IMG/VR virus record: IMGVR_UViG_3300020577_013140
Coordinates: 148,381-182,660 of that record
Length of the DNA stretch: 34,280 bases
Direction: 5' to 3' (one strand)
From: a virus
Lineage: Duplodnaviria; Heunggongvirae; Uroviricota; Caudoviricetes
The notes below the pieces were generated by a model. The model was not told where the DNA came from. It did not search any database and was given only the letters and a program-made list of their open reading frames with translations. A program made the position numbers and the translations under genes. Positions 2,949 to 23,639 of this stretch are shown here, piece by piece (the first letter of the stretch is position 1; each line of letters opens with the position of its first letter).

Positions 2949-2954
2949 ATGAAG

Positions 2955-4448
2955 TTAAATGCCTGCGAGTAATGATGGTGGTACAGGCGGTCCACCCGTT
3001 GAAGGGGGTTGTAACAATTGTCGCATATCCCCTTGATGTTGGAAATTACCTGAGGACATGGCGGTGTGTACTCCGGCCGGTGTGCCTGGCGGCGGAGGTG
3101 TGACTGATCCAATGGACTGCGCGTCCCCAGGACCATCCGCCTTTTCAATGAACTTCATCCACTTCAAGTCGCCATGCAGCGGAAGCCTAAAGTTCTTCGC
3201 ATGCCGGTTCTTGAGGGAGAATATTTCAAAGTTATCGGAAGCAGGATTCTCGCGACCGATGCCCAGTACCGTTTCCGGTTTGTGGACAATACCTTTGAAC
3301 CCAGCGATTTCGTCATTCGAAAAATAGATTTTGACCTTTCCTTTCGCTTGGTGCAAAACCCACATTCCGAAGTGCTTACCTGTGTCGGCGATTGGTTGAT
3401 GGGAAATCTCATCCAACTCCTTTACCACCCGCCCTTCCTTAATCCAGTCCTGCTCCCCAGGCTGTACGCTCTCCGGCTCCATAAACTGAAGCTGATCGAC
3501 GACTAGCAGTTCGAACATGAAGCCGTGCTTGACTGCGTAATCGTCGACAAGCTGTTTTAGCTGCGTGGGCTTCATCGGGGTCATGCCCTTAAGGTCCAAC
3601 AAGACCAGGTTTTCTTGAAGGAGCTTCATACGTGGGGCATCAGTATCGGATGCGATCTTCTGCTCCAGCTCAAGGTATCCGCTGCCATTATGAAGGCTGG
3701 TGTAGTCAACCTCGAATACCGCTGCGTACATACGGTTTGCGATATCTTCCTTTTCTTCCTCCATCGAGCAGTAAATAACCTTGTGACCGGCCAATGCCGC
3801 ACCACGAGCAATCGATGTACCCATCGCTGTTTTACCACCACCAGAGTGCCCTACGATGAGTCCAAACTCTCTGTAGCCGACACCGCCACCAAGGGCCGCA
3901 TTTAGCTTCGCGAACCCCGTAGGGATCATGGAGCAAATAGACTTCTTAAGAATGGTGGCAAATGGGCTTACGAAGCGTTCATCGACCGGGATCTCGGAGT
4001 CGTCCAGCGTGTCGAGTGGGAAGATTACCTTGCGGTATTCCGTAGCCAGTCGCTCCAAATCTCCGCCTGCCTCGGCGACGATCTTGGCAGACCGCCGCGC
4101 CTTGATGAATTTGGGAAGCAACTCAACGACGTAGCTTTCCATCAGTTGAGTGTTCCCGACAAGACGTAGGAGCAGGTGCGGCAGTTGCTCGTAAACAGCA
4201 GGAGATAGCCCTTGGGCGGCCCTCCGGCCGAAATGGATTTTAAGCACATCCAGCAGGATTGGTGCCTCTCCAATTTCCAGAAGAACTTCAGCGACGATTT
4301 TGTAGAGAGGCAGCTGGTACTCTCCAGGAGGCAGGAAATCGTCAGGGGACAGTCCTAACGACTTCGCCTTTTTCATGACCACCGAAGAGTGCATCAAGTG
4401 GCGTAGAACCAGCTCGGACATGTCCTGGCTATTGTAATTTTCGCTCAT
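2955..4448 (-). CDS. dnaB: DnaB/RecA-fold (SF4) replicative DNA helicase
   Basis: TGFAKLNAALGGG, Walker A GHSGGGKT, SMEE, Walker B LLVVDQLQ, HQ motif, KNRH arginine finger; adjacent to the polymerase. Confidence 0.88.
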   Translation of the reverse strand: MSENYNSQDMSELVLRHLMHSSVVMKKAKSLGLSPDDFLPPGEYQLPLYKIVAEVLLEIGEAPILLDVLKIHFGRRAAQGLSPAVYEQLPHLLLRLVGNTQLMESYVVELLPKFIKARRSAKIVAEAGGDLERLATEYRKVIFPLDTLDDSEIPVDERFVSPFATILKKSICSMIPTGFAKLNAALGGGVGYREFGLIVGHSGGGKTAMGTSIARGAALAGHKVIYCSMEEEKEDIANRMYAAVFEVDYTSLHNGSGYLELEQKIASDTDAPRMKLLQENLVLLDLKGMTPMKPTQLKQLVDDYAVKHGFMFELLVVDQLQFMEPESVQPGEQDWIKEGRVVKELDEISHQPIADTGKHFGMWVLHQAKGKVKIYFSNDEIAGFKGIVHKPETVLGIGRENPASDNFEIFSLKNRHAKNFRLPLHGDLKWMKFIEKADGPGDAQSIGSVTPPPPGTPAGVHTAMSSGNFQHQGDMRQLLQPPSTGGPPVPPSLLAGI

Positions 4449-4984
4449 AGGGCTCGTAGTCTTGACACATTTTGAGCAGCCACGCCGGACAAGAATGTCA
4501 GCAACTCCTCAGTTAACTCGCTTTTTGCTTCATCCTTGTATCGATCGATGATTGATTGCACAGGCTTAACTGTAGCAACAATACGGAACCACGCGCTGAA
4601 TGGCAGCACGTGGTCCAGCAGGATGTCTTCAACTGGTCTCTTTGTCCGGTCAATGGCCGTCTTCAGCAAAGCAATCTGGGTGGTCCAAAGTTGCTTCGGA
4701 GAAACGGTTTCGTAGTTGGCGGTAAACCGCTTGGCCACTTCGAGGGCCTTGCTACCTTGAAGCTGATTGGGAAAGAAGTTATCAACCCCATCCTTCACAT
4801 ACGCCTGATACAAGGCGGTGCAGTAGTCTTCCGGGGTGATCTTGGCGGCGATGCAATTCCGTGCCCCAGCGTCAAGAGCCTGCTCGAGGTCGTTGCTCCC
4901 CCGGTAATTAGGCATTTTGCCTCGGCGATACTTGATGTACGCCGCTCGCAATCGATTCTTTATGTCGTCAAATGTCAGCTCCAT
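4445..4984 (-). CDS. Hypothetical protein (replication cluster)
   Basis: 179 aa ORF overlapping both neighbours (ATGA coupling with the helicase); no recognisable motif. Confidence 0.75.
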   Translation of the reverse strand: MELTFDDIKNRLRAAYIKYRRGKMPNYRGSNDLEQALDAGARNCIAAKITPEDYCTALYQAYVKDGVDNFFPNQLQGSKALEVAKRFTANYETVSPKQLWTTQIALLKTAIDRTKRPVEDILLDHVLPFSAWFRIVATVKPVQSIIDRYKDEAKSELTEELLTFLSGVAAQNVSRLRAL

Positions 4985-6119
4985 ATCTTGTCATCCATAG
5001 CTCGACCAAGGCGTGGTAATGTCGATTCAACGCCACATGATCCACAGACCGAGGTAGTTTGGTGGTCTTGTAGGCTTCATCGATTTTCTTGCCCATGGTA
5101 TCGGCGTACTCTACGAGTTGTTCGTATTTCCATCCGCCATTGCGGATTTCAATCAACTCGCCTGCGTCCGGCCGGCGCACCAGTACTTGCCCCGTAGTCA
5201 GGATCTCAAAACCCATGCGCAGTAAGCGCACCAGGTGCATGGAGTGTTTTACATCGTAACCGAACTTAGCTTCAAGAACTTTCCGTTCAGGATTGCGGTT
5301 GGCCTCCCACCGAACGTAGGACTCGTAAGCCCGAAGAGCCTTCTGGTAGTCATGCTCCCTGGAGATCACGGCTGTAAGCTCGTCAGACAAGTTCAACTCG
5401 CTTTGCAGTTTACTGATGGCTGCCTTCCAATGCTCGTCAGGCCAGTTATCCCAGTCGACGACTTTTCCATTTGAAAGGAGGTACACCAGTTCCCAGCAAC
5501 GCTCCTTTAACTCGCTCCGTTCCAGATCGTCGAGACGATATTGATGGAAGTTCCACTCCTCAATCAGCTTGCTAAGCTCACGGGCAATTGTTTCCACCGC
5601 CCTTGGCCTCTCCTCCGGCAACCCGAAATCACTGCGTTTCGGCTTTTCAGTAGTCGGGTCAAGTAGCCACTTCCGATGCCGGTTTATCTTGTTGAGCTGC
5701 GCAATGGCGTATCCAGTAAAAGTAAACTTAGCCTTGCTCGATAAGAATTCCGCACGTCTTCCTTGCAGCTCGTCAAAGAGTGGCACGGTAACAAGGTGGT
5801 CACTGCGGTCAGTGTAGAGTACCTCGATGATGTTCGGGTTAACGTCAGCCGCCAGCTTAAAGAACTTCTTCAGGCTATAGACGTTACTCTCCACCTTTGG
5901 GTTTAGTGGGTTAACGCGAGCTACCACCGGGTCCCAACTATGAATCTCTGGCGCATTCTCGGCTTGCTCGAACCCTTGAAATAAGTGATCACGAACCTGG
6001 ATAGGAGGAATGCACACTCCTTTGACGTCCAAGTCCGATAATGAATGATTAAGACCGTAAGCTTGAGAGCCATGAACGGTCAAAAAGAGAGTGCTGCCGC
6101 GCAGCCAAGAAAAGTCCAT
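4968..6119 (-). CDS. Pol-beta superfamily nucleotidyltransferase (PF10127 / RlaP / YcgL-like)
   Basis: GSQAYGL...SDLDVKGV (GS + DxD signature), NPNIIEVL, and C-terminal YDVKHSMHLVRLL...IRNG typical of this family. Confidence 0.85.
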   Translation of the reverse strand: MDFSWLRGSTLFLTVHGSQAYGLNHSLSDLDVKGVCIPPIQVRDHLFQGFEQAENAPEIHSWDPVVARVNPLNPKVESNVYSLKKFFKLAADVNPNIIEVLYTDRSDHLVTVPLFDELQGRRAEFLSSKAKFTFTGYAIAQLNKINRHRKWLLDPTTEKPKRSDFGLPEERPRAVETIARELSKLIEEWNFHQYRLDDLERSELKERCWELVYLLSNGKVVDWDNWPDEHWKAAISKLQSELNLSDELTAVISREHDYQKALRAYESYVRWEANRNPERKVLEAKFGYDVKHSMHLVRLLRMGFEILTTGQVLVRRPDAGELIEIRNGGWKYEQLVEYADTMGKKIDEAYKTTKLPRSVDHVALNRHYHALVELWMTRYGADI

Positions 6120-6122
6120 AAA

Positions 6123-6617
6123 TCAAAGTTCTATTCTACGTAGTTCTTCACCACCGGCCACAGTGGCACGAGCGATGGCCTCCCGAGCCCGTTGCAGCAA
6201 GAGGTTTGAAAGGTTACGGGTCCCACGACAGGAAGGATACCCAGTGCAGCCTAGAAACGCCTGGCCGTTTAGTCGGTTGTGCCTCACGACCATCGGCTTT
6301 TGACAGACACCACACTTCTCTGACGACGCATCGATCCTGGCTTGTTGACCACAGGTGGGGCAAGAGGTTGTAGTGTGGCGCACAGAGGACTCAGCCGCAG
6401 TAGGGCGGTTCCATATCCCACTATGCTGAGGAGTCGTCGCAGGCGGTTGTGAAAACAAGCTGTTCAAACCAACTTGCGCTCCCAGGTATCCGCGAATTTG
6501 TTCTTTTATCGGGTCAACTTCCGCGGCTAGTTGCGATGGCGGAGTCGAGTTACGCAGGAGCTTTAATATCCACTCTACTGCTTGAGGATATTGCTCATAA
6601 AGGGTCTGTGTGCTCAT
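6123..6617 (-). CDS. Protein with C-terminal topoisomerase-type C4 zinc ribbon
   Basis: CPTCG and CGVCQKPMVVR...FLGCTGYPSCRGT, matching the zf-C4_Topoisom pattern. Confidence 0.8.
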   Translation of the reverse strand: MSTQTLYEQYPQAVEWILKLLRNSTPPSQLAAEVDPIKEQIRGYLGAQVGLNSLFSQPPATTPQHSGIWNRPTAAESSVRHTTTSCPTCGQQARIDASSEKCGVCQKPMVVRHNRLNGQAFLGCTGYPSCRGTRNLSNLLLQRAREAIARATVAGGEELRRIEL

Positions 6618-7554
6618 AGTTTCGCCATTCGTTGTATAGCGTGAAGCTGAGTTGATCCGTCGTCATTTCGTCAGGTGACGGAAAGCCGTATGGCCCAAGG
6701 TCGACATTTAAGGCTCGCAGTCCGTAAGCCCGTAGCGAAGCCGCAACACGGCGACCAATCGCTTGGGCAACGTCCTGAGCGTCAAGACATACGATTATAT
6801 TCTTCCAGTTGGTCAAGAGTTGCACTTGGGCATCCGTCAGGTCCTTGCCGAAGCAAGCCACTGCATTAGGCAGTTTCAATGCCTTCTTGACACCCTCAAC
6901 CAATACGACTGTCTGATACTGCCTGGCCTTGTCGTAGTTGAACAAGTACTGCCCCTTGTTGAACAAGTGGTAGTATTTGACTGCATCTTCTCGATCACCG
7001 TATGTGGTCCCGGGTATAGACCTCATTTGCCAGCCAACCAACTCGTTGTTGAACCGCACCGGGAAGATCAGCCTCTCAGCCGATGAAATAAACGGGCGAC
7101 TGGAGAAGGTCATTCCAGCGTCACAAGGGCAATAGCAAATCCCGTATTCAGTGGCGTACCGATCCAAATCGAACAGATGATCTTTGTGCAGGAACTTGAC
7201 GGCCGGATGGTCCAAAGGCAACTGGTTCACCGGAATAAACCGAAGACCTGGCATCTGCCTCGCCATCGGGTTTTCCTTTTTGGGCTCCAACTCCACAGTG
7301 GACTGTGCTGTGCCAGATACCCTGATAAATTGGTCCCCGACCAGCTCAGCCTCCTGCATAGGCATCTCACAAATGAAGCACCTATTGAACAGTCGATCCA
7401 GGTGTACGTATCGCTTGAACTTCTTTTTGTCCCTTGCGGTACAAGTTGGACAAGCGATACGTACCCATCCGTTCGAGGCCGGTTTTACCGTTCCGAATTT
7501 CTCTCGTAGTTTCGAAAGTACACGGACCTCGTTCTCGTTCATAAGAATTAGCAA
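6595..7554 (-). CDS. dnaG: DnaG-type DNA primase (zinc finger + TOPRIM), divergent
   Basis: N-terminal CPTC...CFIC, RLIFPV...VGWQMR, KYY...LFNYD, TOPRIM-like LVEG, AVACFGK, CLDAQD. Confidence 0.8.
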   Translation of the reverse strand: MLILMNENEVRVLSKLREKFGTVKPASNGWVRIACPTCTARDKKKFKRYVHLDRLFNRCFICEMPMQEAELVGDQFIRVSGTAQSTVELEPKKENPMARQMPGLRFIPVNQLPLDHPAVKFLHKDHLFDLDRYATEYGICYCPCDAGMTFSSRPFISSAERLIFPVRFNNELVGWQMRSIPGTTYGDREDAVKYYHLFNKGQYLFNYDKARQYQTVVLVEGVKKALKLPNAVACFGKDLTDAQVQLLTNWKNIIVCLDAQDVAQAIGRRVAASLRAYGLRALNVDLGPYGFPSPDEMTTDQLSFTLYNEWRNYEHTDPL

Positions 7555-7605
7555 ACAAACTACACCTGCTCGGCCAATTGGTTCAGTCGGGCCACTTCAC
7601 GAGTA

Positions 7606-8256
7606 TCAACCGTTAGTGGGGCCGGGCGACGCCGCCAAAGACGGCCCCAGCAACGCTGGATAAAGTTTTTCAAGTGAGACATCGTTAGATTGATTGATGT
7701 TGAGATCGGGGCGATGCGCGATAACCGCCTCGACAATTGTTTCAATTTGTTCTGGTACTCCTGGGAGTGCCTTGTACGGGATATTTCGCGCTTCCAGTAC
7801 CTTCCTGATCCGGGCGTCCAACTGCTCGGCCTCTGTCTTCGTTTGAAGCCTCCCGATCGGGTTATAACGCTTTCGGCGTTCGATAAAGAAGTTCAGGTTG
7901 TCGTAAGACCAATGCTCTGCGAGCACCATCTCAACAAAGGCAGCACGTGTCTGCTCGCGTTTCTGGGCGTCATAGATAAGGGAGTTGATCAATGGGGAGT
8001 CAGTGATAATGACATCAACCTTACCGTTCAACCGGAAAAGGCGGTTCTGCTGCTTCCCGAATACGTAAAGCTGGTTATTCAGCACATCAAAAGACTGCTG
8101 CCAAACCATGTCTTTCGCGTACTCAAGCGCCATCTCGCAATTCACTCCCAACCATTTCAGTGAGGCAAACACGCCTGCACAGAATGTAGATTTACCTGCA
8201 CCTGGGCCGGCAAATAAGTTTACGACTGTCGTCTTCTTAGAGGGTTCCACCTGCAT
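7606..8256 (-). CDS. P-loop NTPase / kinase-like protein (AAA_28, NadR-like)
   Basis: NLFAGPGAGKST, EYAK, IITDSPL, GRLQT. Start moved to ATG 8256 so that it follows the upstream stop at 8282. Confidence 0.8.
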   Translation of the reverse strand: MQVEPSKKTTVVNLFAGPGAGKSTFCAGVFASLKWLGVNCEMALEYAKDMVWQQSFDVLNNQLYVFGKQQNRLFRLNGKVDVIITDSPLINSLIYDAQKREQTRAAFVEMVLAEHWSYDNLNFFIERRKRYNPIGRLQTKTEAEQLDARIRKVLEARNIPYKALPGVPEQIETIVEAVIAHRPDLNINQSNDVSLEKLYPALLGPSLAASPGPTNG

Positions 8257-10320: not shown

Positions 10321-12378
10321 CTATAGTCGGATGACATGATCCACAGCCTCTGTAAGCAGAGAGCTATGGTCAATGATAATTAACTGCTGGATGATCTTGT
10401 CCGCCTTCAGATCTTTCACGCATTGGAAATACAACTTCTTGTTCTCTTCATCCAAATGCGTTGTGCCTTCATCGATGATCAACATCGGGAAGGCCTGGCT
10501 AAACATGGAGTGCAGCGCAAGGCGAAGGCACAACCCCACGACCATTTCCTGGCCGCCAGATAACCGCGGTACCACGTGTCCATCGCGTGTAACGACGATC
10601 CTGAAGTCTTCGTTGATATTTGCGCGATACGGCAGGTCGAACCTCTGGAGTTGCTGCTGGAGTTCCTCTTCTACAACGGTCCCGTAGGTTTGTACAAGAC
10701 GACGAGGAAACTGAGAGGTATGCAGCACGTCATACGCCATGCGCAATTTATTGCTATACTCCGTCCTCGCCAAGTTCTTCTCGTGGTTTGCCAGTGAAGC
10801 TACACGTCTTTGCTCAAGGATGGTCACCTCAGTGCGGACCTGGGCGACTTCCTTTTCCAACGCGCTGATCTCCTGCATTCTCAACCGGTGACGTTGCAAC
10901 ACCTCATTCATCAAGGTTAACTCTTCAGCCGGAGTGGCGTTGCCTGTATATTCCACCAAGTGCTTTAATTGCTCCTCAAGGACACGAACAGATGCTTCAG
11001 TCTGAATGCGGGCGTTGTCCAGCTGCCTCATTGTGGTAAGGGTGGTCTGTACGTGCTGTCGCAAGGTCATAACAGCCATTAGTCTGGCCTCGTCATACTC
11101 CACATAAGAACCGGTTGCCTGGGCGTTCAATGCCTGTACCTGGGCGTTCAATGCATGCCACTGGGACAGCACGGCCTTGCGCGATTGCAAGATTTCCCTT
11201 TGTGCCTCCAGTTGACTTTGAGCATAAGCACCATCGCTAGTCAGGGAGAGGAGGCGACTCTGGGCATCGGCCAAATGTTGAGCTACGTCGGTTAGCGGCT
11301 GGTGACAGGTCGGACAAGTCGCGGCACCACTAAGGTTTTGAAGCCCGTGTATTTCCTGTCGTACTTTCTGAACTTCCAGTTGGTTGGACATAACTGCCGA
11401 GCGATGCGTGTCACACCGTTGTTGCAGCTCATCAATTTCAGCTTGAAGAGCGACAGGATCGACCTTGAGACTCTGCATTGTCTCACAAGCGGAAGCCAAT
11501 GCACTCTTGGCTTGGAGGTGCTGCCTATACTGCTCTTTCTTAGTTACAAGCTCTGCGTACTGACTTTCAAGGTCTTCGGGTATTGTGCGCAGTTGTTCAC
11601 CCAATGCAGTGAACTGACTGACGAAACTTTCCACATTGGCTTTAGCCTCTGCCAACTGAGCTTCGAGAATCGGACGCTTGCGCGCGTCCTGGATACACCT
11701 GTTGTAATGGTCAGTATATCCAAGCACAGCCATCATCTGCTGCTCACTGAGAACGGAGGTTGACATGAGCAGGAGCTTTTCTTCCTTGGGGGTCAGCTCC
11801 GTACGCAACCTGGCAAGCTGTAAGTCAATAGCGTGTACGTCGTCTTCAGGCAACGGAGGAGGACAAGTCTTGATGTACCCGTCCCAGATCAAGCTGCGTA
11901 ACTTCTCGGTATTTGGCACCATGAAGATACGCTGGAAGGCCTTTTCCCGGACCGCGGTTTCACCCGAGAACAACTCCGGGATTTTCTTCTGCTTGGCCAT
12001 GATGACGTGCTGGAAGATATGGGAATCCACCTGGATCATTTTTGCCCACATATCCCTCACTTCACTGGCTTTCACCAGCTTCTGCCCGTCGTACTCCAAT
12101 ATCACCCTGGAAGTGTCCAGTGCACGCTCAATGACACCCTCTTTTCCATTCAGGGTGAATTTACCACGCACATAAGCCGTACCGCTCGCTCCAGCTGTGA
12201 TGACCTGTTCCTTCGGGTCGTCAGTTTCGCCAGTGAACAAGAAGCCGATAGCCTCGATGATGGAACTCTTTCCAGTACCATTACGACCAACAATACCTGT
12301 GACGCCCGATGAGAACTTGATCGTCAGATTATCGTGAATACGAAACCGTCTGAGCGTCAGTTCATTTAAGATCATCAT
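10321..12378 (-). CDS. sbcC: SbcC/Rad50-like SMC-family ATPase (recombination nuclease subunit)
   Basis: Walker A GRNGTGKS, long coiled coil, central zinc hook CPTC, signature LSGGQ, Walker B IIDE, H-loop IDH. Confidence 0.92.
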   Translation of the reverse strand: MMILNELTLRRFRIHDNLTIKFSSGVTGIVGRNGTGKSSIIEAIGFLFTGETDDPKEQVITAGASGTAYVRGKFTLNGKEGVIERALDTSRVILEYDGQKLVKASEVRDMWAKMIQVDSHIFQHVIMAKQKKIPELFSGETAVREKAFQRIFMVPNTEKLRSLIWDGYIKTCPPPLPEDDVHAIDLQLARLRTELTPKEEKLLLMSTSVLSEQQMMAVLGYTDHYNRCIQDARKRPILEAQLAEAKANVESFVSQFTALGEQLRTIPEDLESQYAELVTKKEQYRQHLQAKSALASACETMQSLKVDPVALQAEIDELQQRCDTHRSAVMSNQLEVQKVRQEIHGLQNLSGAATCPTCHQPLTDVAQHLADAQSRLLSLTSDGAYAQSQLEAQREILQSRKAVLSQWHALNAQVQALNAQATGSYVEYDEARLMAVMTLRQHVQTTLTTMRQLDNARIQTEASVRVLEEQLKHLVEYTGNATPAEELTLMNEVLQRHRLRMQEISALEKEVAQVRTEVTILEQRRVASLANHEKNLARTEYSNKLRMAYDVLHTSQFPRRLVQTYGTVVEEELQQQLQRFDLPYRANINEDFRIVVTRDGHVVPRLSGGQEMVVGLCLRLALHSMFSQAFPMLIIDEGTTHLDEENKKLYFQCVKDLKADKIIQQLIIIDHSSLLTEAVDHVIRL

Positions 12379-12870: not shown

Positions 12871-13058
12871 TTAATTGGTTGATTGATTGATTTTGTTGGT
12901 GGAATTACCAGGTGCGACAACGACATTGCCGAAGGATAATCGACCACAGCGATTACCCATACACCTGCTATGATAAGCTTTTGGATGAAATGCGACTCTA
13001 GCTGCGCTCGCGGCCAAATCGGTTCTCCATCGTCAAACCATGTCATTAGTCGGCTCAT
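12867..13058 (-). CDS. Small hypothetical protein
   Basis: 63 aa; 4-nt overlaps with both neighbours. Confidence 0.55.
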   Translation of the reverse strand: MSRLMTWFDDGEPIWPRAQLESHFIQKLIIAGVWVIAVVDYPSAMSLSHLVIPPTKSINQPIK

Positions 13059-14155
13059 ACAAGGTATTTTCCTTTGAAGCCGTCCAGCACCAGCCGGGGG
13101 TCTTCAGTGTCTAGAGCCGAAGTTAATAGTAACCGTACTTCTTCGTCAGGCACCATGTCTTTCAAAACAGCGCCTATCCGAACTTGATTATTCAACTCAT
13201 TACGAATGCTGACTCCCTTGACGACCTCGCCAGAAGAATCTTTCGCACGTATTTGAGTTGTCCTTACGATACCAAGCTGGTACAGCTCGCGAGCTTCAAC
13301 CAACCGGTCTCTCGTAGAGGATGAGTATTCAATCAAAAACACAGGGCGACGCCCTCGGTGTTTCTTGTACTTGTCGATGTAATAGCCGACCTCCAGCCCT
13401 TTCGTGGCCGAAGTCGTCAGGTCCAGCTTGATAAAATCCCGTCCTAATGGATACGGGATACGACTCAAGACGTGGCCGTTGAAATGCAGCATTCCAGTGT
13501 GCACACCAATGTCAGAAGACGAGGTGACACCCAAACTGCCACAATACCCTATGAAGGCTTCACGCCCGTCTGCCTTGATGCTGCCTTCATAGGGTTTATG
13601 AATATCTCCGAGGAGGACGCCGCGGAGACGAGGGTACAATTCGAACAACCGCAACGTGCTTAAGTCCAGCTTCTTACGCTCTTCGCAGAATGGCCACAGA
13701 GCAGGCACCTGCCCATGCAGCACAATCCATTCGGCGGTACTCCGATTTACCGCTGTTTGGAGATGTGCCATTACTTCTGCCGGATTGTCCGAGTAATCAC
13801 AACCAACGAACTGCGGGGCAGTCTCGACAGGAACCACTCCGCTGATTTTAGTCCACGACTCAGTATTTACCGGTTTATCGTGATCCCCGGCGATACCAAT
13901 TACGCGTACGCCAGCCAACCTCGCATTTTCGATTTCATTCCTTACGAAATGGATCAAGTCAGGAGTAGGCTTGTTTGTGTCGAATAGGTCACCTGCGATG
14001 ACCAGATAATCAACATGTAACGCAGCAGCCGTACGACAAGCTTCTGCAAACAAGCGCCGAAGATCAGCGCCGAGCTCTTGCTGGTTGTACAGGTTTAACC
14101 CGATATGAACATCGGAGATTGCAAGGAATGAAGACGACTCAAGCATATGCAGCAA
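13055..14155 (-). CDS. sbcD: SbcD/Mre11-like metallophosphoesterase nuclease
   Basis: SDVHIG, AGDLFD, GDHD, LHG, LGDIH, YCGS; close to the Rad50-like gene. Confidence 0.9.
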   Translation of the reverse strand: MLHMLESSSFLAISDVHIGLNLYNQQELGADLRRLFAEACRTAAALHVDYLVIAGDLFDTNKPTPDLIHFVRNEIENARLAGVRVIGIAGDHDKPVNTESWTKISGVVPVETAPQFVGCDYSDNPAEVMAHLQTAVNRSTAEWIVLHGQVPALWPFCEERKKLDLSTLRLFELYPRLRGVLLGDIHKPYEGSIKADGREAFIGYCGSLGVTSSSDIGVHTGMLHFNGHVLSRIPYPLGRDFIKLDLTTSATKGLEVGYYIDKYKKHRGRRPVFLIEYSSSTRDRLVEARELYQLGIVRTTQIRAKDSSGEVVKGVSIRNELNNQVRIGAVLKDMVPDEEVRLLLTSALDTEDPRLVLDGFKGKYLV

Positions 14156-14393
14156 GGTTGGATTCTATCGCCTTGACTTCCAATTGCAAGGCTCTTTCGC
14201 GGGTGGGTTCTCGTGCGAGGATTTCTCCGGTTTGCCGACTTTTTGCCTCCCAGGCCCCATCCTGCCACTCAACGTCGCTGGCACGGTCGATTGTTTTTTC
14301 ACCAAGCCGGTCAGCCACTGGCAGCAATGCATCGGAATACACTGCTACCATCCTGCCTTCCGGCGTCAGCAGGATTTTCATGGGCTTTTTCAT
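14139..14393 (-). CDS. Small protein of the Ycf46-module type (RASxVE...W...R..AL..E motif)
   Basis: 84 aa. ILLTPEGRMVAVYSD...RASDVEW...TRERALQLE resembles, from recollection only, small proteins next to DUF2997/DUF1257 genes in Planctomycetota. Confidence 0.65.
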   Translation of the reverse strand: MKKPMKILLTPEGRMVAVYSDALLPVADRLGEKTIDRASDVEWQDGAWEAKSRQTGEILAREPTRERALQLEVKAIESNLAAYA

Positions 14394-14587
14394 CCCAACC
14401 CTTGTTGCGCCGTCTGGGTCTCAGGATCGGCGAAGAAGTTTGGCGTCGAGGCCCTGGACGACTCGTCTACCGTTCCGAGGCGCCCTTCAAGCCTTGCGGT
14501 GGCAGCGACACAAGTGCTGCCGTATCCTTCGGCGTCAAGAATCGTAGTGGCGCCGTGTTTGTCGATTTTGAATCGGATGCGTTTCAT
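14390..14587 (-). CDS. DUF2997-like small protein
   Basis: 65 aa: IRFKIDKHG...EGYGSTCVAATARLEGRLG...TPNFF, matching the DUF2997 pattern (G..C...T..LE..LG...T.EF); gene context supports it. Confidence 0.72.
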   Translation of the reverse strand: MKRIRFKIDKHGATTILDAEGYGSTCVAATARLEGRLGTVDESSRASTPNFFADPETQTAQQGLG

Positions 14588-14853
14588 AGATAGCTGATGG
14601 AGGCCGGGATAACCCGCTTTTTCTGGTCGAGGCGGAATCGAATATGTACCGTGTGCTTCTTCGGGCTTCCGGCAATGTGCTCCACCTCAATGGTCACCTT
14701 GGCACAGAAGAATGCCGAATCCGCTTTATCGGCACGTACCGTCTTTGCGTCCACCGTCACGAACTTCGGTGGGGGATCCTCAGCAAAGTAGTGACGCTGA
14801 AGCGCCTGGATAATGTCCGTGGTCAGTTCTCTAGCCAATGGTTTGTTGTTCAT
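14584..14853 (-). CDS. Hypothetical protein
   Basis: About 89 aa from ATG 14853 (MNNKPLARE...), 7 nt after the upstream stop. Confidence 0.6.
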   Translation of the reverse strand: MNNKPLARELTTDIIQALQRHYFAEDPPPKFVTVDAKTVRADKADSAFFCAKVTIEVEHIAGSPKKHTVHIRFRLDQKKRVIPASISYL

Positions 14854-14860
14854 GTGCCTG

Positions 14861-15250
14861 TTAGTTCCACTCGGCGACTTCGACGATAATATTTCCTTGT
14901 TCGTCCCTCTGCCGAGTAATACTGGCGTTAGGGAACTCGTCCTCAATGACAGCGTTGGCGAACTCTTGTTTCAACTTGTAAAACCCTTCGCCAAGCGTTT
15001 TTCCAACCGACCCTCCGTAGAAGTCGGTGTAAAACCCGAGCACTCCACCTTCTGGCTTGATCCCCACGTCATAACCTGACCCCGTCTTATCCGGGTTTAC
15101 CGCCACGTAAGGGTAGCCCATTGAGGTCCCGCCGTATTGACGGGCCTGGCCGTTTTGAACGAGCGTCCAACCAAGGGCCTCCAGGGACCTGGTCAATTGC
15201 GGTAGCTCGGTGACCTTGAACTGCACTGCGACTTTGACTGTATGTGACAT
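14861..15250 (-). CDS. ycf35: DUF1257 / Ycf35-like protein
   Basis: MSH start, L..SLEALGW, YDVG...DFY, LKQEFA, QGNIIVEVAEW; typical Ycf35 size and context. Confidence 0.75.
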   Translation of the reverse strand: MSHTVKVAVQFKVTELPQLTRSLEALGWTLVQNGQARQYGGTSMGYPYVAVNPDKTGSGYDVGIKPEGGVLGFYTDFYGGSVGKTLGEGFYKLKQEFANAVIEDEFPNASITRQRDEQGNIIVEVAEWN

Positions 15251-15651
15251 TAACGTACTCCGTATTGAAGCAGGAATTGATAGACTTCTTTTGTCATCTC
15301 ACGTCCTGCAGGTTGCATTCTGATGTCCTCGATTGGGCCGTAGTCCACTACGTCCTCCTCCGGTGTCGGGCGAAGTTTGCTTTCCAAATAGTGGATCAAA
15401 TCCGCCCTTTTCAAGTGTGTCTTCTCCGGCGAGTCATCCGCGGTTTCTGGGCTGACAATATTTTCCTCAGCTACCGGTACAATTTTCTTCGTTAAGAACA
15501 CCAGCTCGTCTGGCGTGGATTCCTCGGCTACATATATGCCGGAGGCCAACTCAATCCAAACCACCGGGGTGGGATGTTTGAGGTTTGTGAACTTGATCCA
15601 CACCGTATCGAACTTGTATTCGTGAATATCGTCCAATGGACTGTTGCTCAT
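15250..15651 (-). CDS. Acidic hypothetical protein
   Basis: 133 aa, D/E-rich, coupled to neighbours on both sides. Confidence 0.65.
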   Translation of the reverse strand: MSNSPLDDIHEYKFDTVWIKFTNLKHPTPVVWIELASGIYVAEESTPDELVFLTKKIVPVAEENIVSPETADDSPEKTHLKRADLIHYLESKLRPTPEEDVVDYGPIEDIRMQPAGREMTKEVYQFLLQYGVR

Positions 15652-16634
15652 ACCTCGATACGTCGAACGTACTCGCCGGTCAACGCGTCAAGGTCGGAAG
15701 TGTCTTTAGCGACTTGCAGTACCTCACCAACTGCAGCACCGAGGGCCGCAATTGCGTCATAGTCAGTCTTGAGGTCCCGGCCAGAGCCGATAATTCCTCG
15801 GACTGCAGCGAGCTTTTCACGAACAACCTTGTCGTCAAGGAAGTCGAGACCTTCAAAAGCCTCGATAATCCCAGCCATGGTTTTCAGGTTGGTCGTTGAT
15901 ACTACCTCCCGATCCTTGATCTTGCGTGCAATGGTTTCAAACACCTCCACAATACGCTCACGCATGGAGGTGACAGCGTCCTTCAAGAAGCTGTCCACTT
16001 GCTGCATGCTTTGTGCATATTGTCGTTGCCACTCTGCCTCGAATTTACGCTGCATGTCCTCTCGAGCGGTGGCTTCGGCCTGTACAGAGGCCAGGTCAAT
16101 TTCCCGCATTTGTCTTGGGAATGCGACCTCGAACATACCGATATGAAACCCGAACTTGGTGCGAACGTGTTCGCGGCTCGGGTAATAGGGCAGCAATAAC
16201 GCCCGGTGATCCGGGTATTTTGCCAGCATGGCTTCCTTGTGCACCTCGTATTCGCGGAGAAACGTCTCGACGAGCGCGAGGTACTTTGTGCGGAAGTCGT
16301 GAAGCTTCTCGATCACCGTCGTCAAAGTACGGTGTGGCACAAAATGCGCTTGTGCGATCGGGAATGGATGAGCGTGCGCACGGAGATATGCCCGTGCAGC
16401 GTTCTCAAGCGCTGCGAACTTGCGCAGCTGCTCTTCACCGACCAGCATCTTGTTGCCGAGCTTCACGAACTCCGGCAACACGGCGTTTGCAACTAAAGGC
16501 AGATCCTCGCGGTTCAACCTGGTCGCCATCGACCATTTTGATACGTGAAGCTGCACCAATTTTCCATCACGGAACAAGCGTTGAAAACGCTCGTTGAGCG
16601 CGTTCGGAGCTTGCGGTTGTGGGGCTTGACTCAT
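15648..16634 (-). CDS. DUF3150-like alpha-helical protein
   Basis: 328 aa. LVQLHVSKW...L...DL...KLGNKMLV...AHFVP...YPS...KF followed by a long helical region; directly downstream of the AAA+ gene. Confidence 0.6.
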   Translation of the reverse strand: MSQAPQPQAPNALNERFQRLFRDGKLVQLHVSKWSMATRLNREDLPLVANAVLPEFVKLGNKMLVGEEQLRKFAALENAARAYLRAHAHPFPIAQAHFVPHRTLTTVIEKLHDFRTKYLALVETFLREYEVHKEAMLAKYPDHRALLLPYYPSREHVRTKFGFHIGMFEVAFPRQMREIDLASVQAEATAREDMQRKFEAEWQRQYAQSMQQVDSFLKDAVTSMRERIVEVFETIARKIKDREVVSTTNLKTMAGIIEAFEGLDFLDDKVVREKLAAVRGIIGSGRDLKTDYDAIAALGAAVGEVLQVAKDTSDLDALTGEYVRRIEV

Positions 16635-18226
16635 ATGGCAATACTCCGCAGTTCTTCTTTTACGTCGACCACCGTTCCATCGTTACCGGCCATACGCAGC
16701 TTACCTTCAGCCTCGGCGCGCATCCGGACGATATCTGCCTCGTTCGTCTTCGATTGCGGGGTGGTTCCCTGAATTTCCTGGATCAAGTCTGCGTCAGAGA
16801 ACTCGCGTTGACCGTCAGAGAAACACTTGAACATCACGCTGACGATCACTTGTTCAATCTCTGCGCCGGTGAACCCTCGGGACTCCTTCGCCAGGTGTTT
16901 CAAATTGAACTTGCCTGGTTCCCTGCCGTAGCGCTTCAGCAATACGCGGAAGATCGAAGCTCGGTCAGCCTCAGAAGGCAGGTCCAGCCAGAACAACTCG
17001 TCAAACCGTCCCTTACGAATCATCTCCGGGGGAAGGATCGTAAAGTTGTTTGAAGTGCCGATCACAAAGACCGGAGTCTTGTGCTCAGAAAGCCACGTCA
17101 ACAGAGTACCAAAACTTCTGGATGACGTGCCGGTATCGCCCTGGCCTGATACGGCGGAGCGATTCAACGATTTCTCGATCTCGTCGATATAGAGGATACA
17201 GCTGCCGATACCATCCACAGCCTGAATGACGCGCCGGAAGTTCTGTTCGGTTTCGCCAACCAACTTACCGAACAATGAACCGATGTCCAGTTGGAAGGCA
17301 GGTAGTCCGAGTTCCGCCGACGTCGCCTTGGCGAGTAGCGTTTTACCAGATCCCGGGACGCCGCACAGCAGCACACCCCTTGGGTAAGGTAGCCCGTATT
17401 TCCGTGCAGCCGGAAGATACGCCTGTCCACGCTGACGGATCCAGGCTTTCAACCCTTCCAGCCCGCCGACCTCATCAAACGTCACATCAGGCTCCAGGTA
17501 AGTAAGCAGCCCGGACTTCTTCAGGTGCGCAACCTTTTCGGTAAACACAGAATCGACAAAGGTCCGATCGAACTTCTTGCTACCCACGATGGCAAGAGTG
17601 TACGCGTTTTCAGCCTCGCTGTCCGTTAATCCCTTCGCCGCCTCAATGGCCTTGGCCATGATTTCCGGGGAAATGGAAAAGTCGTGGTGTGACCCGGCTG
17701 CCTTGGTGGCCTCGACCCCGCGCTGTACGAAAAGAAGTCGGTCTCGCAACCCTTCGTCACCCGGCAGGGCGAAGTCGAGCACCTGGACGTCCTTGATGAG
17801 CTCCTCAGGTATCGCATAAAGAGGAGTGACGAATAACACGGTTGTACCTTTACTCTTCAACCGTCCGATCACATTTCGAAACGCACGGCGCACCGAAGGG
17901 TCCTGGAAGTACGGATGAAAATCCTTGAGAATGAAAAGCTGCCGGTCAGCCGAATTCTTCTCGATGTACTCCAGCAACTTCTTCACTACTGCCGTATCGT
18001 TAATCGCTGTGCGTGATTTGTTCAACTCCATCTTGGTGAGTCCGCGAATGGCGTCCCATTCGAGGATAGTCCGGGCACGCCGGCCACTCTCAGGAGGAGG
18101 GTTAAGAACCCAGTCCGAGATCTCACTGATTACACGGCCTTCCTCGTGAGTCTGAACCCACAACAACGGATAACTCGAATTGAGATAGGCTTCGAGCCGG
18201 CCCTGGAATGACACCCTGGAACTCAT
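16631..18226 (-). CDS. ycf46: Ycf46-family AAA+ ATPase
   Basis: N-terminal YPLLWVQTHEEGR and LKDFH (degenerate first AAA module), VGGLEGLKAW, GVPGSGKT, YIDEIEK, TSN, PPEMIRKGRFDELFWLDLP, GFTGAEIEQ. Confidence 0.92.
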   Translation of the reverse strand: MSSRVSFQGRLEAYLNSSYPLLWVQTHEEGRVISEISDWVLNPPPESGRRARTILEWDAIRGLTKMELNKSRTAINDTAVVKKLLEYIEKNSADRQLFILKDFHPYFQDPSVRRAFRNVIGRLKSKGTTVLFVTPLYAIPEELIKDVQVLDFALPGDEGLRDRLLFVQRGVEATKAAGSHHDFSISPEIMAKAIEAAKGLTDSEAENAYTLAIVGSKKFDRTFVDSVFTEKVAHLKKSGLLTYLEPDVTFDEVGGLEGLKAWIRQRGQAYLPAARKYGLPYPRGVLLCGVPGSGKTLLAKATSAELGLPAFQLDIGSLFGKLVGETEQNFRRVIQAVDGIGSCILYIDEIEKSLNRSAVSGQGDTGTSSRSFGTLLTWLSEHKTPVFVIGTSNNFTILPPEMIRKGRFDELFWLDLPSEADRASIFRVLLKRYGREPGKFNLKHLAKESRGFTGAEIEQVIVSVMFKCFSDGQREFSDADLIQEIQGTTPQSKTNEADIVRMRAEAEGKLRMAGNDGTVVDVKEELRSIAI

Positions 18227-18232
18227 TGTAGC

Positions 18233-18610
18233 TTAGGTGCTTGAAACTTTACATGTTTCGCCAGTATCAAGGAGAGACTCAAGCAAATTGACCACACGGT
18301 CAACTGCCGCACTGGCGTAATCGTCGCCTCTCCTGCTAGTAAGTAATTGAACTTCCTGCATGACCTCGAGATCCTCCTCCAGCTGAGGCAGGTCAAGGTC
18401 GTCGAAAAAGGTACGGCGGATTTGTGCCCGCCGTGCCTCTGGGGATGCTGCTGGTGCTGAAGGTCGCTCAGAAGGGACCAATACTACGGACCCCTTGAAC
18501 GCCAGTTGCACCAGCTTTTCCACTTCAGCTGCATCGATTGGAAGTCGCGCAGATGAAGGACGCGAGGGTTTAGCCCCCGACTTTTTCGTGACCCGCTTGG
18601 GCTTTGGCAT
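18233..18610 (-). CDS. Hypothetical protein with basic N-terminal tail
   Basis: 125 aa; MPKPKRVTKKSGAKPSRP N-terminus; acidic helical C-terminus. Confidence 0.6.
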   Translation of the reverse strand: MPKPKRVTKKSGAKPSRPSSARLPIDAAEVEKLVQLAFKGSVVLVPSERPSAPAASPEARRAQIRRTFFDDLDLPQLEEDLEVMQEVQLLTSRRGDDYASAAVDRVVNLLESLLDTGETCKVSST

Positions 18611-19214
18611 GTTGGTCGATGAGTTTCAGAACGTCGATTTCGAAAAAGTCCACAAGGACCTTCAACACCGCCAACGGCACAGTCATGCCCGGGCGGACTT
18701 TTCCTTCAAAGAACAGCTTCTGCCGTGGCGAGGCCTGGTCAAAGAATGCCGTCGCATGAGCCTGAAGTTCTTTCAGTGCCGGATGGCGCAGGTCAAGCAC
18801 CGTGTATGCGGCGAGTTTTTCCTGAGAAGCTTCCTGGTCAGGAGCGTCGTCCGTGTCGGTTCGTGTGATCTGCGTCGCTGCTGGAACGGTCGTAGTTACG
18901 ACTGGAGGCAGTGGTGGCGGTGTCACCGCAGGCACCACAACCCTCGGGGTACGCTTCGCTGGCTCTGGTGTAGGAGCGGCGGGCGCAGGAGCGGCGGGTG
19001 CGCCGTCCTTGGGCTTGTTCTTGCTCCCAGGAGGCCGGCCACGACGCTTGGGAACCTCGGCAGTTGCCGGAGGAGCAGGCGGAGGCGGTGGAGGCGTAGC
19101 AGCAACCGCGCGGGCGCGCTTCTGTACAGTAGGCGCCGGGGTAGGTGCAAGAGTACTAGCTGCTGTGACAGCAGGGAGCTTGGGTTTGTTCTTGGATCCT
19201 TTAGGTCTTCCCAT
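18570..19214 (-). CDS. Pro/Ala-rich protein with two AT-hook motifs (putative DNA-binding protein)
   Basis: MGRPKGSKNKPK and KRRGRPPGSKNKPK separated by Pro/Ala linkers; small globular C-terminal region. Confidence 0.75.
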   Translation of the reverse strand: MGRPKGSKNKPKLPAVTAASTLAPTPAPTVQKRARAVAATPPPPPPAPPATAEVPKRRGRPPGSKNKPKDGAPAAPAPAAPTPEPAKRTPRVVVPAVTPPPLPPVVTTTVPAATQITRTDTDDAPDQEASQEKLAAYTVLDLRHPALKELQAHATAFFDQASPRQKLFFEGKVRPGMTVPLAVLKVLVDFFEIDVLKLIDQHAKAQAGHEKVGG

Positions 19215-22604: not shown

Positions 22605-23639
22605 CTACTCTCCGTACTTGAGTAGAAATTCGGGGTTGATTACCTTGAAGGACAGACGCCCAAGGTCACAGTCGACTGTTTCGACATGTGGTCGGAAAAC
22701 CCCTCCTTCAATCCACACTTGTGGGTTGAGTAGTGACTTACGCGTGACGAACTCCACCAACGAGTCGACGGTGTGTCCCGCCAGCGTAATACTAGGCTCA
22801 ATGATCGGAACCATCCCAATATTCCAAGTCTGACACCACGAGGCGAGCTCCTCATTGGTAAGGAAGCGATGCCGGTCGATGTCGAACAGGTTGAAAGCAA
22901 AGAACTGGACGGAGGACAGCCCTAGTTTGTTGCTCTGAATGTTCGGACCCGCGAGTTCTCCCTGAACGGCGTAATGCGTCCCATGCGCTTGCCCGTATTG
23001 TTCAAGTGCTTCGTGGATCTGACGTTCTGCGGCCACCTTCCACTGAACGGCGTCTCCTGGGATAAGGTCACGATTTCTGGAACAGGCACCACGCATGGGT
23101 TGACCATCCAATGCCATGGTTGAATAGTAGGTTGTGGACATTCCGTCAATCTTCTCGGTGACGGTGAATTGTATGTTCGGCCACCGCTGTAAGACGGATG
23201 GGCACGCCTGGAGTCTTGTTTCGTCCGTCTTGACGAGGAAGGAAGGAAAGTCTCCACGAGCCAGACCAGCCATAACCGCAGGGAGAGGAGGAGGTTCATA
23301 TTTCGTGATACCTAGGACTCCCGTAACATCGGTGCCTACCTGAAGAAGTTTGACGGCGGCCAGTTGTGGAAGACCTAAACCTAGGACCAACCCTTGGGAG
23401 ATTTGTTTTTTCATCCTCACCGTCTTCAGTCGGAGAGGTTTGTCCGGGATCAGTTCGCCTGTCCACGGGTTAAAAGGAAGCATTGAATCTGGCTCGATAT
23501 AGACGACCAGATCGCCCACCCTGAACTCCCCCTTTCTAACGACACACTTCCAACCGAGCACAGTTGCGCTCTCGATTTTGTCTGCGTCTGGAATAGGTTG
23601 GAGATCAACGATGCGCTGAATACTAGCGAGTTGTCTCAT
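22605..23639 (-). CDS. ATP-dependent RNA ligase, DRB0094/Rnl5 family
   Basis: N-terminal RQLASIQRI...PIPDADKIE...GW...VY.EPDS...SQGL, FPSFLVKTDETRLQ, adenylation motif TEKIDG, SRN, QGEL, EGGV, SFKVINPEFLLK. Confidence 0.92.
   Translation of the reverse strand: MRQLASIQRIVDLQPIPDADKIESATVLGWKCVVRKGEFRVGDLVVYIEPDSMLPFNPWTGELIPDKPLRLKTVRMKKQISQGLVLGLGLPQLAAVKLLQVGTDVTGVLGITKYEPPPLPAVMAGLARGDFPSFLVKTDETRLQACPSVLQRWPNIQFTVTEKIDGMSTTYYSTMALDGQPMRGACSRNRDLIPGDAVQWKVAAERQIHEALEQYGQAHGTHYAVQGELAGPNIQSNKLGLSSVQFFAFNLFDIDRHRFLTNEELASWCQTWNIGMVPIIEPSITLAGHTVDSLVEFVTRKSLLNPQVWIEGGVFRPHVETVDCDLGRLSFKVINPEFLLKYGE

Follow-up and report, generated by a model that had tools for sequence, protein, structure and literature searches.

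A conserved five-gene AAA+ ATPase module of phages and plasmids and a shared C-terminal tail as its possible docking signal

What does a large phage do with an AAA+ ATPase that is followed, in one crowded operon, by a row of small proteins belonging to families of unknown function? The question is raised by a 34,280-nucleotide (nt) stretch, here called the window, that forms the last 34 kb (positions 148,381–182,660) of the 182,660-bp IMG/VR virus record IMGVR_UViG_3300020577_013140 (CheckV completeness 83%). The record derives from an uncultured phage of the Caudoviricetes with a genome of ~200 kb. A reading made from the DNA alone, the sequence-only reading, had proposed a dedicated remodelling machine made of a Ycf46-like ATPase and of DUF3150-, Ycf35- and DUF2997-like proteins, coupled to Mre11-Rad50. 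The phage carries an intact copy of what is a real, conserved and uncharacterised five-gene module, composed of the ATPase, a DUF3150 protein, a diverged DUF1257/Ycf35 protein, a DUF2997 protein and an 84-amino acid (aa) protein, the latter being a fifth conserved core component that the first reading had overlooked. A literature search found no description of the five-gene set and no functional study of DUF3150, DUF1257 or DUF2997.

Seven minus-strand open reading frames (ORFs), overlapping or tightly packed, fill positions 14139–18226 of the window, and the coordinates confirm the seven-gene arrangement first described, including the overlap of the last gene with the Mre11-like gene (8 nt, given the orthologue-supported Mre11 ATG start). 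Of the six junctions within the module, four are overlaps of 4 nt and one is an overlap of 1 nt, whereas at the sixth the genes stand 7 nt apart. The ATG start of the 89-aa gene is supported because orthologue alignments begin only at residues 30–62 of the 120-aa frame that a TTG extension would give. The module stands at the head of a block of replication and recombination genes on the minus strand, a position in support of the proposed link with early and replication genes. A scan for promoters and terminators returned counts at chance level.

The set is conserved among related phages. In one 196,657-bp contig (L004) the seven genes are complete and their order is unchanged, with Mre11 next and with proteins 24–51% identical to those of the window. 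The order AAA, DUF3150, DUF1257, DUF2997, 84-aa gene and Mre11 is kept in eight other phage loci and two additional contigs, where they reach that far; loci with the five-gene core include L009, L010, L011, L018/L021, L023 and L024, with Rad50 next where the contig extends further, and the 84-aa match was missed in one of them, L024. The other two genes behave differently. The 133-aa protein has orthologues in L010, L011 and, weakly, L004, with no match in the other phage loci examined; nothing separates DUF3150 from the DUF1257 gene after it in L009 and L024, and both the 133-aa and the 89-aa genes are often missing or replaced in relatives. Their proposed status as lineage-specific members is borne out across these loci. 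Among cultured phages no match was found by megablast of the region or by tblastn of DUF3150, and a scan of a genome collection for DUF3150 gave two contigs only, both phage-like and filed in metagenome-assembled genomes (MAGs).

Bacterial plasmids also carry the module. On a plasmid of Candidatus (Ca.) Manganitrophus the AAA, DUF1257, DUF2997 and DUF3150 genes and an 84-aa ORF occur together in a gene order unlike that of the phage, the ORF lying downstream of DUF3150 and matching the 84-aa profile at 2e-12; on two more Manganitrophus plasmids the AAA and DUF3150 genes are close together. A Pseudanabaena plasmid links DUF1257 and DUF2997 with a full-length ATPase homologue, and cyanobacterial plasmids hold full-length ATPase homologues of 35–38% identity over 91–97% of the length. 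Genes linked with the ATPase in Bacillus and Arthrobacter plasmids encode DUF2997, a DNA-binding protein of HHH_3 type, a small protein of the membrane and a protein of radical-SAM type; the plasmid neighbours of module genes include HHH_3, OGG-like and DnaQ genes. Since the five families recur on phage relatives and together on the Ca. Manganitrophus plasmid, their linkage is not due to chance, and the phage and plasmid loci jointly define a mobile five-gene core without fixed order. The expectation that linkage to the ATPase would be conserved elsewhere has therefore held across phages and bacterial plasmids.

A variant cassette devoid of DUF1257 and DUF3150 was observed in a B. cereus plasmid (L015), an Arthrobacter plasmid (L016) and a metagenomic bacterium (L031). 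It contains a tailed ATPase (see below), a small membrane protein that begins with MS[LIT]... and a radical SAM / Fer4_12 protein, to which L015 and L016 add DUF2997 and an HHH_3 protein bearing the same tail.

The ATPase consists of a conserved non-ATPase N-domain (residues ~1–245), a single AAA domain (285–415) and a lid. It matches PF00004 (expectation value (E) 1.7e-27) and phrog_8638 (E 1e-117), and AAA_lid_3 scores 25.5 bits, slightly below the cut-off of 27.2. The motifs are intact: Walker A (GVPGSGKT at 289), Walker B (ILYIDE at 344) and arginines R404 and R407 in RKGRFD. The features of the classical AAA+ clade, i.e., Walker A, Walker B, the arginines of the second region of homology and the lid, are thus all present. 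The nearest solved relatives are D2 domains of Cdc48/p97 (1.5e-55). By sequence the N-domain shows no relation to N-domains already known, and it has no match in the PDB. Placement in the SpoVK/Ycf46/Vps4 group comes through the JGI name of one homologue.

The ATPase gene is interrupted in several relatives. Inserts of 306 nt at Walker A, between residues 289 and 290 (L018), of 270 nt at Walker B (L002) and of 877 nt near the pore loop, with two small ORFs inside (L009), were observed in the gene regions 4543–6441, 2435–4312 and 5491–7941 of these loci, and a JGI contig (3300075153) has LAGLIDADG ORFs between pieces of the ATPase gene. These inserts resemble introns or inteins, elements that as a rule invade phage genes which are conserved and important.

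The assignments of the DUF3150, DUF2997 and Ycf35-like proteins made by the sequence-only reading are borne out, the first two by direct matches and the third at the family level, a direct DUF1257 match being absent. DUF3150 matches PF11348 over residues 26–178 with 79.1 bits (gathering cut-off 24.9, E 4.2e-22), and the domain is present in all 35 near-full-length homologues. Its AlphaFold2 (AF2) model, with a predicted local distance difference test (pLDDT) score of 77, comprises an alpha/beta domain at the N-terminus, a ~60-residue helix and, at the C-terminus, a bundle of helices. The model has no significant fold match in the PDB, the N-domain having been barely probed, and matches eight uncharacterised phage proteins in BFVD at E<=1e-6. 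A ClyA-like fold (Z 11.1, root-mean-square deviation (rmsd) 3.0 over 131 residues) was considered and rejected, as the match is to a generic four-helix bundle and lies under the trusted level for helical proteins.

DUF2997 matches PF11211 with 25.0 bits (cut-off 24.1, E 1.7e-5) over profile positions 1–46 of 47 and has the conserved core G..G..C...T...E..LG. G12, G23, C26 and L37 are invariant in an alignment that includes annotated plasmid DUF2997 proteins. Cys26 is the sole Cys of the protein, and the tail is variable among the phage and plasmid members aligned. A ubiquitin- or Pup-like reading, prompted by the C-terminal ...QQGLG, was dropped because this tail is not conserved.

For the 129-aa protein no direct Pfam match was found, PF06868 being absent even at E<=10. 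PF06868/DUF1257 is matched by 17 of the 21 aligned family sequences (the window protein and 20 homologues; best 2.4e-7), and the family profile retrieves NCBI-annotated DUF1257 proteins at 9e-10 and 2e-7. The N-terminal MSHTV is invariant in all 21 sequences, and MSH is found also in plasmid DUF1257 proteins, the start reading MSH(T/F/V) across all members; a preprint reports the motif for essentially all Ycf35 proteins (PMC13060386). His3 is invariant and the only His of the protein. The AF2 model (pLDDT 88) has no Foldseek match in the PDB at E<=1e-3, and a KA1 domain was rejected, the best VIA match (Z 5.9, rmsd 3.9 over 87 residues) being within noise. A complex prediction for DUF1257 with DUF2997 gave a score of 0.55, but one control reached 0.39, and the result does not weigh on binding in either direction.

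The 84-aa protein has no match in the family libraries. Deep HMMER searches recovered 1,403 cluster representatives of its family at E<=1e-3 and 202 at <=1e-10; R37, W48 and E72 are invariant, and the family is characterised by the motif RASxVE...W. A member occurs also in an unrelated phage contig of ~89 kb (L026, 6640–7258), two genes after a DUF2997-like ORF (profile E 2e-5) and with no AAA or DUF3150 gene within 7 kb. This pairing suggests that the 84-aa protein and DUF2997 may form a sub-module of their own. No family was found for the 133-aa protein in Pfam, PHROGs, NCBIfam or PADLOC, nor for the 89-aa protein in Pfam and PHROGs.

New in this window is a C-terminal tail common to the ATPase, DUF3150 and two DNA-binding proteins encoded outside the module, a zinc-ribbon protein and a WGR-domain protein (Table 1). 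Of all 1201 ORFs with 50 aa or more in the record, only four end in R.I.[ILVM], and these four are ATPase (...EELRSIAI), DUF3150 (...EYVRRIEV), Zn-ribbon (...EELRRIEL) and WGR (...APRRISL), the latter also having an Arg/Pro-rich linker. A stricter form of the motif was observed 3 times against 0.08 expected (P ~9e-5, for a motif defined post hoc), and the weight of the tail therefore rests on its conservation. In relatives the tails of AAA and DUF3150 come in pairs, partly co-varying: RKLGI/RKLDV, RHIAL/RKVEL, RRLDEKFS/RRLDTEGI, RALDPFN/RRLDFDEL, RELDIS/RRLDLEL, RKLNS/RKFNV and RKVKA/RAIKI. The ATPases of the Bacillus and Arthrobacter plasmids end in GRTIDF and GRQIDF and the adjacent HHH_3 proteins in GRMIDF and RRLDL. 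Similar tails are found on the ATPases of a Treponema plasmid (RKLEM), of mycobacteriophage Corndog (gp96, RVLDL) and of a distant bacterial homologue (RKIEI). The Zn-ribbon orthologues of two related phages keep the tail as well (L029, ...TRRIEL; L028, ...MRLIEIN).

Table 1. Module genes and other features discussed (window positions unless the record is named; pI, isoelectric point)
Feature	Position	Strand	Family or evidence
AAA+ ATPase, 531 aa	16631-18226	minus	PF00004, phrog_8638
DUF3150 protein, 328 aa	15648-16634	minus	PF11348
Acidic 133-aa protein, pI 4.7	15250-15651	minus	no family; clade-restricted
Diverged DUF1257/Ycf35 protein, 129 aa	14861-15250	minus	family-level PF06868 homology
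Basic 89-aa protein, pI 9.6	14584-14853	minus	no family; variable member
DUF2997 protein, 65 aa	14390-14587	minus	PF11211
84-aa protein, RASxVE...W family	14139-14393	minus	deep HMMER profile search
Mre11/SbcD-like nuclease (context)	13055-14155	minus	Metallophos 5.4e-9
Rad50/SbcC-like ATPase (context)	10321-12378	minus	SMC_N 3.2e-21, AAA_23, SbcC_Walker_B
Top1-type C4 zinc-ribbon protein, 164 aa	6123-6617	minus	Zn_ribbon_Top1 2.5e-9
AT-hook protein (context)	18570-19214	minus	two GRP-type AT-hooks in sequence
WGR-domain protein, 140 aa	record 137567-137989, ~10.4 kb before window start	minus	PF05406 E 7e-7

The neighbours of the module in the phage are an AT-hook protein gene upstream and genes of Mre11, Rad50, SF2 helicase, DnaB and PolA downstream. 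The AT-hook gene heads the same strand block and is kept directly upstream of the module in L010 and L011. The nuclease and the Rad50-like protein combine, by Pfam, a metallophosphoesterase with an SMC-like ABC ATPase, as in Mre11-Rad50/SbcCD; the Mre11/SbcD models of NCBIfam match the nuclease below their cut-offs, and the Rad50 models (3e-37) also stay below theirs.

The module is best read, with a probability of about 0.5, as a single remodelling machine of mobile DNA, an AAA+ motor with tail docking whose targets are DNA-bound proteins in replication and recombination. Its core would be a hexameric ATPase of the classical clade with one active ring and the conserved N-domain. Four dedicated partners (DUF3150, DUF1257/Ycf35, DUF2997 and the ~80-aa RASxVE-motif protein) would assemble with it, together with two clade-specific small subunits, all probably made from a translationally coupled operon that heads the replication and recombination genes. 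The C-terminal peptide R-x-(I/L/V)-x-hydrophobic would dock the ATPase, DUF3150, the Zn-ribbon and the WGR proteins to a common receptor within the machine, and the ATPase would spend ATP to remodel or strip DNA-bound protein assemblies in phage replication, recombination or end processing. We infer the formation of the complex, the role of the tail as docking signal and the DNA-bound clients. DNA-bound assemblies are suggested as substrates because the additional tail carriers (Zn-ribbon, WGR, HHH_3) are DNA-binding proteins, and by the setting of the module between an AT-hook gene and those of Mre11, Rad50, helicases and polymerase. A more specific version can be put forward tentatively, namely a tail-docking 'segregase' in which DUF1257, DUF2997 and the RASxVE protein might build the receptor and DUF3150 the scaffold, and which might act on a set of DNA-binding proteins that varies (Zn-ribbon, WGR, HHH_3), loading them or stripping them from DNA.

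Several observations weigh against a tail-docking machine acting on DNA-bound proteins. Pore loop 1 of the ATPase reads KLVG (320–323), with Leu where an aromatic residue is expected; threading unfoldases usually carry an aromatic residue there, and their aromatic-hydrophobic-Gly signature is absent, so translocation is not assured. PDB sequence searches with DUF1257, DUF3150, DUF2997 and the 84-aa family found no solved relative and, with no convincing fold match either, the partner structures give no pointer towards either DNA or a receptor for the tail. The motif was drawn up with the data already in view, and the ATPases of Manganitrophus and Pseudanabaena lack the tail. Certain bacterial neighbourhoods suggest other connections, to Hsp70-GrpE, radical SAM and ferredoxin. 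The coupling to Mre11-Rad50 that had been proposed stands as an adjacency kept within this phage clade; it is positional only, and the plasmid versions examined lack it.

Among known systems, the ATPase domain is nearest in sequence to the D2 domain of Cdc48/p97 and resembles Cdc48/p97/VAT and PAN in its Walker A and B motifs, Arg fingers and lid; like these, the phage ATPase comes with a set of small dedicated partners. It differs from Cdc48/p97 by having a single Pfam AAA domain instead of tandem D1-D2, and its TIGR01243 score is 108.7 vs a cut-off of 802.65. Further differences from Cdc48 and PAN are the N-domain unrelated by sequence, the KLVG pore loop, the DUF partners without solved relatives and the absence of a peptidase partner near the phage ATPase. 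The ATPase is predicted to run like a motor of Cdc48/PAN type, but it is not a member of those families. Its tail recalls the HbYX/GQYL tails, which are shared by several activators and dock on one receptor.

Short C-terminal peptides on partners or clients are recognised by AAA+ machines also in the Vps4-MIT/MIM and ClpX-SspB systems. The likeness is by analogy only, with no sequence relation, and in the phage the ATPase itself carries the peptide and the receptor is putative. The closest homologue in a cultured phage is gp96 of Corndog (cluster O), 32% identical over 86% of the length and ending ...VRVLDL; gp95, encoded downstream of it, ends ...ALDFEEVV. No matches to the DUF1257, DUF2997, DUF3150 or 84-aa families were found among the gp96 neighbours. 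A weak fold match to DUF3150 (E 0.025) comes from Dylan, also a phage of cluster O, in a protein of 275 aa.

The module also recalls the Iet (IetA-IetS) system and SGI1 sgiAT, the ATPase domain matching IetA at E 4e-25 (PADLOC) and 1.3e-20 (NF042959). The match is confined to residues 275–495 of the phage ATPase, with an NF042959 score of 73.9 vs a cut-off of 510; the phage operon has no IetS-like subtilase or protease gene, and the module is phage-borne and not a host defence locus. The resemblance to this anti-phage ATPase is one point in favour of a rival reading, in which the module serves counter-defence or host takeover. Early in infection the ATPase with its adaptors would capture and unfold host proteins (defence factors, nucleoid proteins), and the tailed proteins would be adaptors and not clients. 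Such a role would also suit the carriage of the module on mobile DNA, phages and plasmids included, its place in a gene block of early type that also encodes an AT-hook protein, and the position of DUF3150 beside ssb, lambda-exonuclease, MoxR-type AAA and VWA genes on other plasmids. It is judged unlikely, as a PADLOC scan of the module proteins matched the ATPase domain only and none of the partners, and the cyanobacterial DUF2997-ycf35 pair is chromosomal and housekeeping-like. The strong conservation of the set and the invasion of the ATPase gene of relatives by intervening sequences fit a core function better than accessory counter-defence.

In cyanobacteria DUF2997, ycf35 and fed7, a 4Fe-4S ferredoxin gene, form a conserved cluster (PMC4284462). 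The phage module is tied to this cluster by the DUF1257 and DUF2997 genes: the phage DUF1257 protein has the universal MSH start, DUF2997 is present, and one cyanobacterial plasmid has the ATPase homologue beside both. The cyanobacterial pair sits with a ferredoxin, whereas the phage has DUF3150, the 84-aa protein and Mre11 instead. A metal, Fe-S or redox-linked chaperone, in which DUF1257 and DUF2997 would handle a cofactor and the ATPase would mature or repair a metallo-enzyme, a role that the cyanobacterial cluster would share, is improbable for the phage, where the context is DNA metabolism and no radical SAM or Fer4_12 gene is found in the 183-kb record (83% complete). In one metagenomic bacterial locus and on plasmids of Bacillus, Treponema and Arthrobacter, genes of these two types do adjoin the ATPase, and the invariant sole His3 of DUF1257, in its N-terminal Ser-His, and sole Cys26 of DUF2997 would suit a cofactor role, but one Cys and one His are insufficient alone to hold a cluster.

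Still more doubtful is the possibility that the tails are peptides binding a sliding clamp or a hub of the single-stranded DNA-binding protein (SSB) type, by which the ATPase and the DNA-binding proteins would each be recruited to a host replication hub and not to one another. The hydrophobic-acidic-hydrophobic ends (LDF, IDF, LDL) do resemble short C-terminal hub peptides. The bacterial clamp-binding consensus is QL[SD]LF, but the conserved first residue of the tail is Arg and not Gln; no beta-clamp domain is detectable in the phage record, and its PolA-type replicase is not known to need a clamp. That the genes are mere neighbours without joint function, the small ORFs being unrelated fillers in a crowded early operon, is very improbable even with the 133-aa and 89-aa genes coming and going and the 84-aa family occurring in L026 away from AAA and DUF3150, because the five families co-travel across 25–70% identity, differing gene orders, phages and plasmids, and even in L026 the homologue is two genes away from a DUF2997-like ORF.

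Some further features of the region and its relatives were observed. RNA-repair genes flank the region on the minus strand, a RlaP-like nucleotidyltransferase at 4968–6119 and an RNA ligase (PHA02142 OB-fold and RNA_ligase) at 22605–23639, and the RNA-repair toolkit of the clade is rich, since relatives add RtcB and Thg1 genes. In L004 two DUF6197 genes (10664–11283) lie between an 88-aa gene and DUF2997, with more DUF6197 copies elsewhere in the locus. Two phage-like contigs of the clade, L011 (RXKB01000001.1, 226,528 bp) and L012 (CAYMQQ010000001.1, 211,238 bp), sit in MAGs named Candidatus Dependentiae and Sediminibacterium, which is probably a binning artefact and possibly a hint about the host.

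What recurs on large phages and plasmids is an AAA+ motor accompanied by four dedicated partner families, their function unknown and their folds not recognisable. Two of its families, ycf35 and DUF2997, and perhaps ycf46, are long-standing orphans of cyanobacteria; ycf35, and perhaps ycf46, are orphans also of algal plastids. The shared tail makes an opaque gene cluster testable and turns the tailed DNA-binding proteins into candidate clients. Should this tail logic prove right, it would define a way of recruiting to AAA+ machines on mobile DNA, a code that is new, and the segregase logic, if true, would provide a first biochemical function for the orphan ycf35, and for ycf46 too if it is orthologous, of cyanobacteria and algal plastids.

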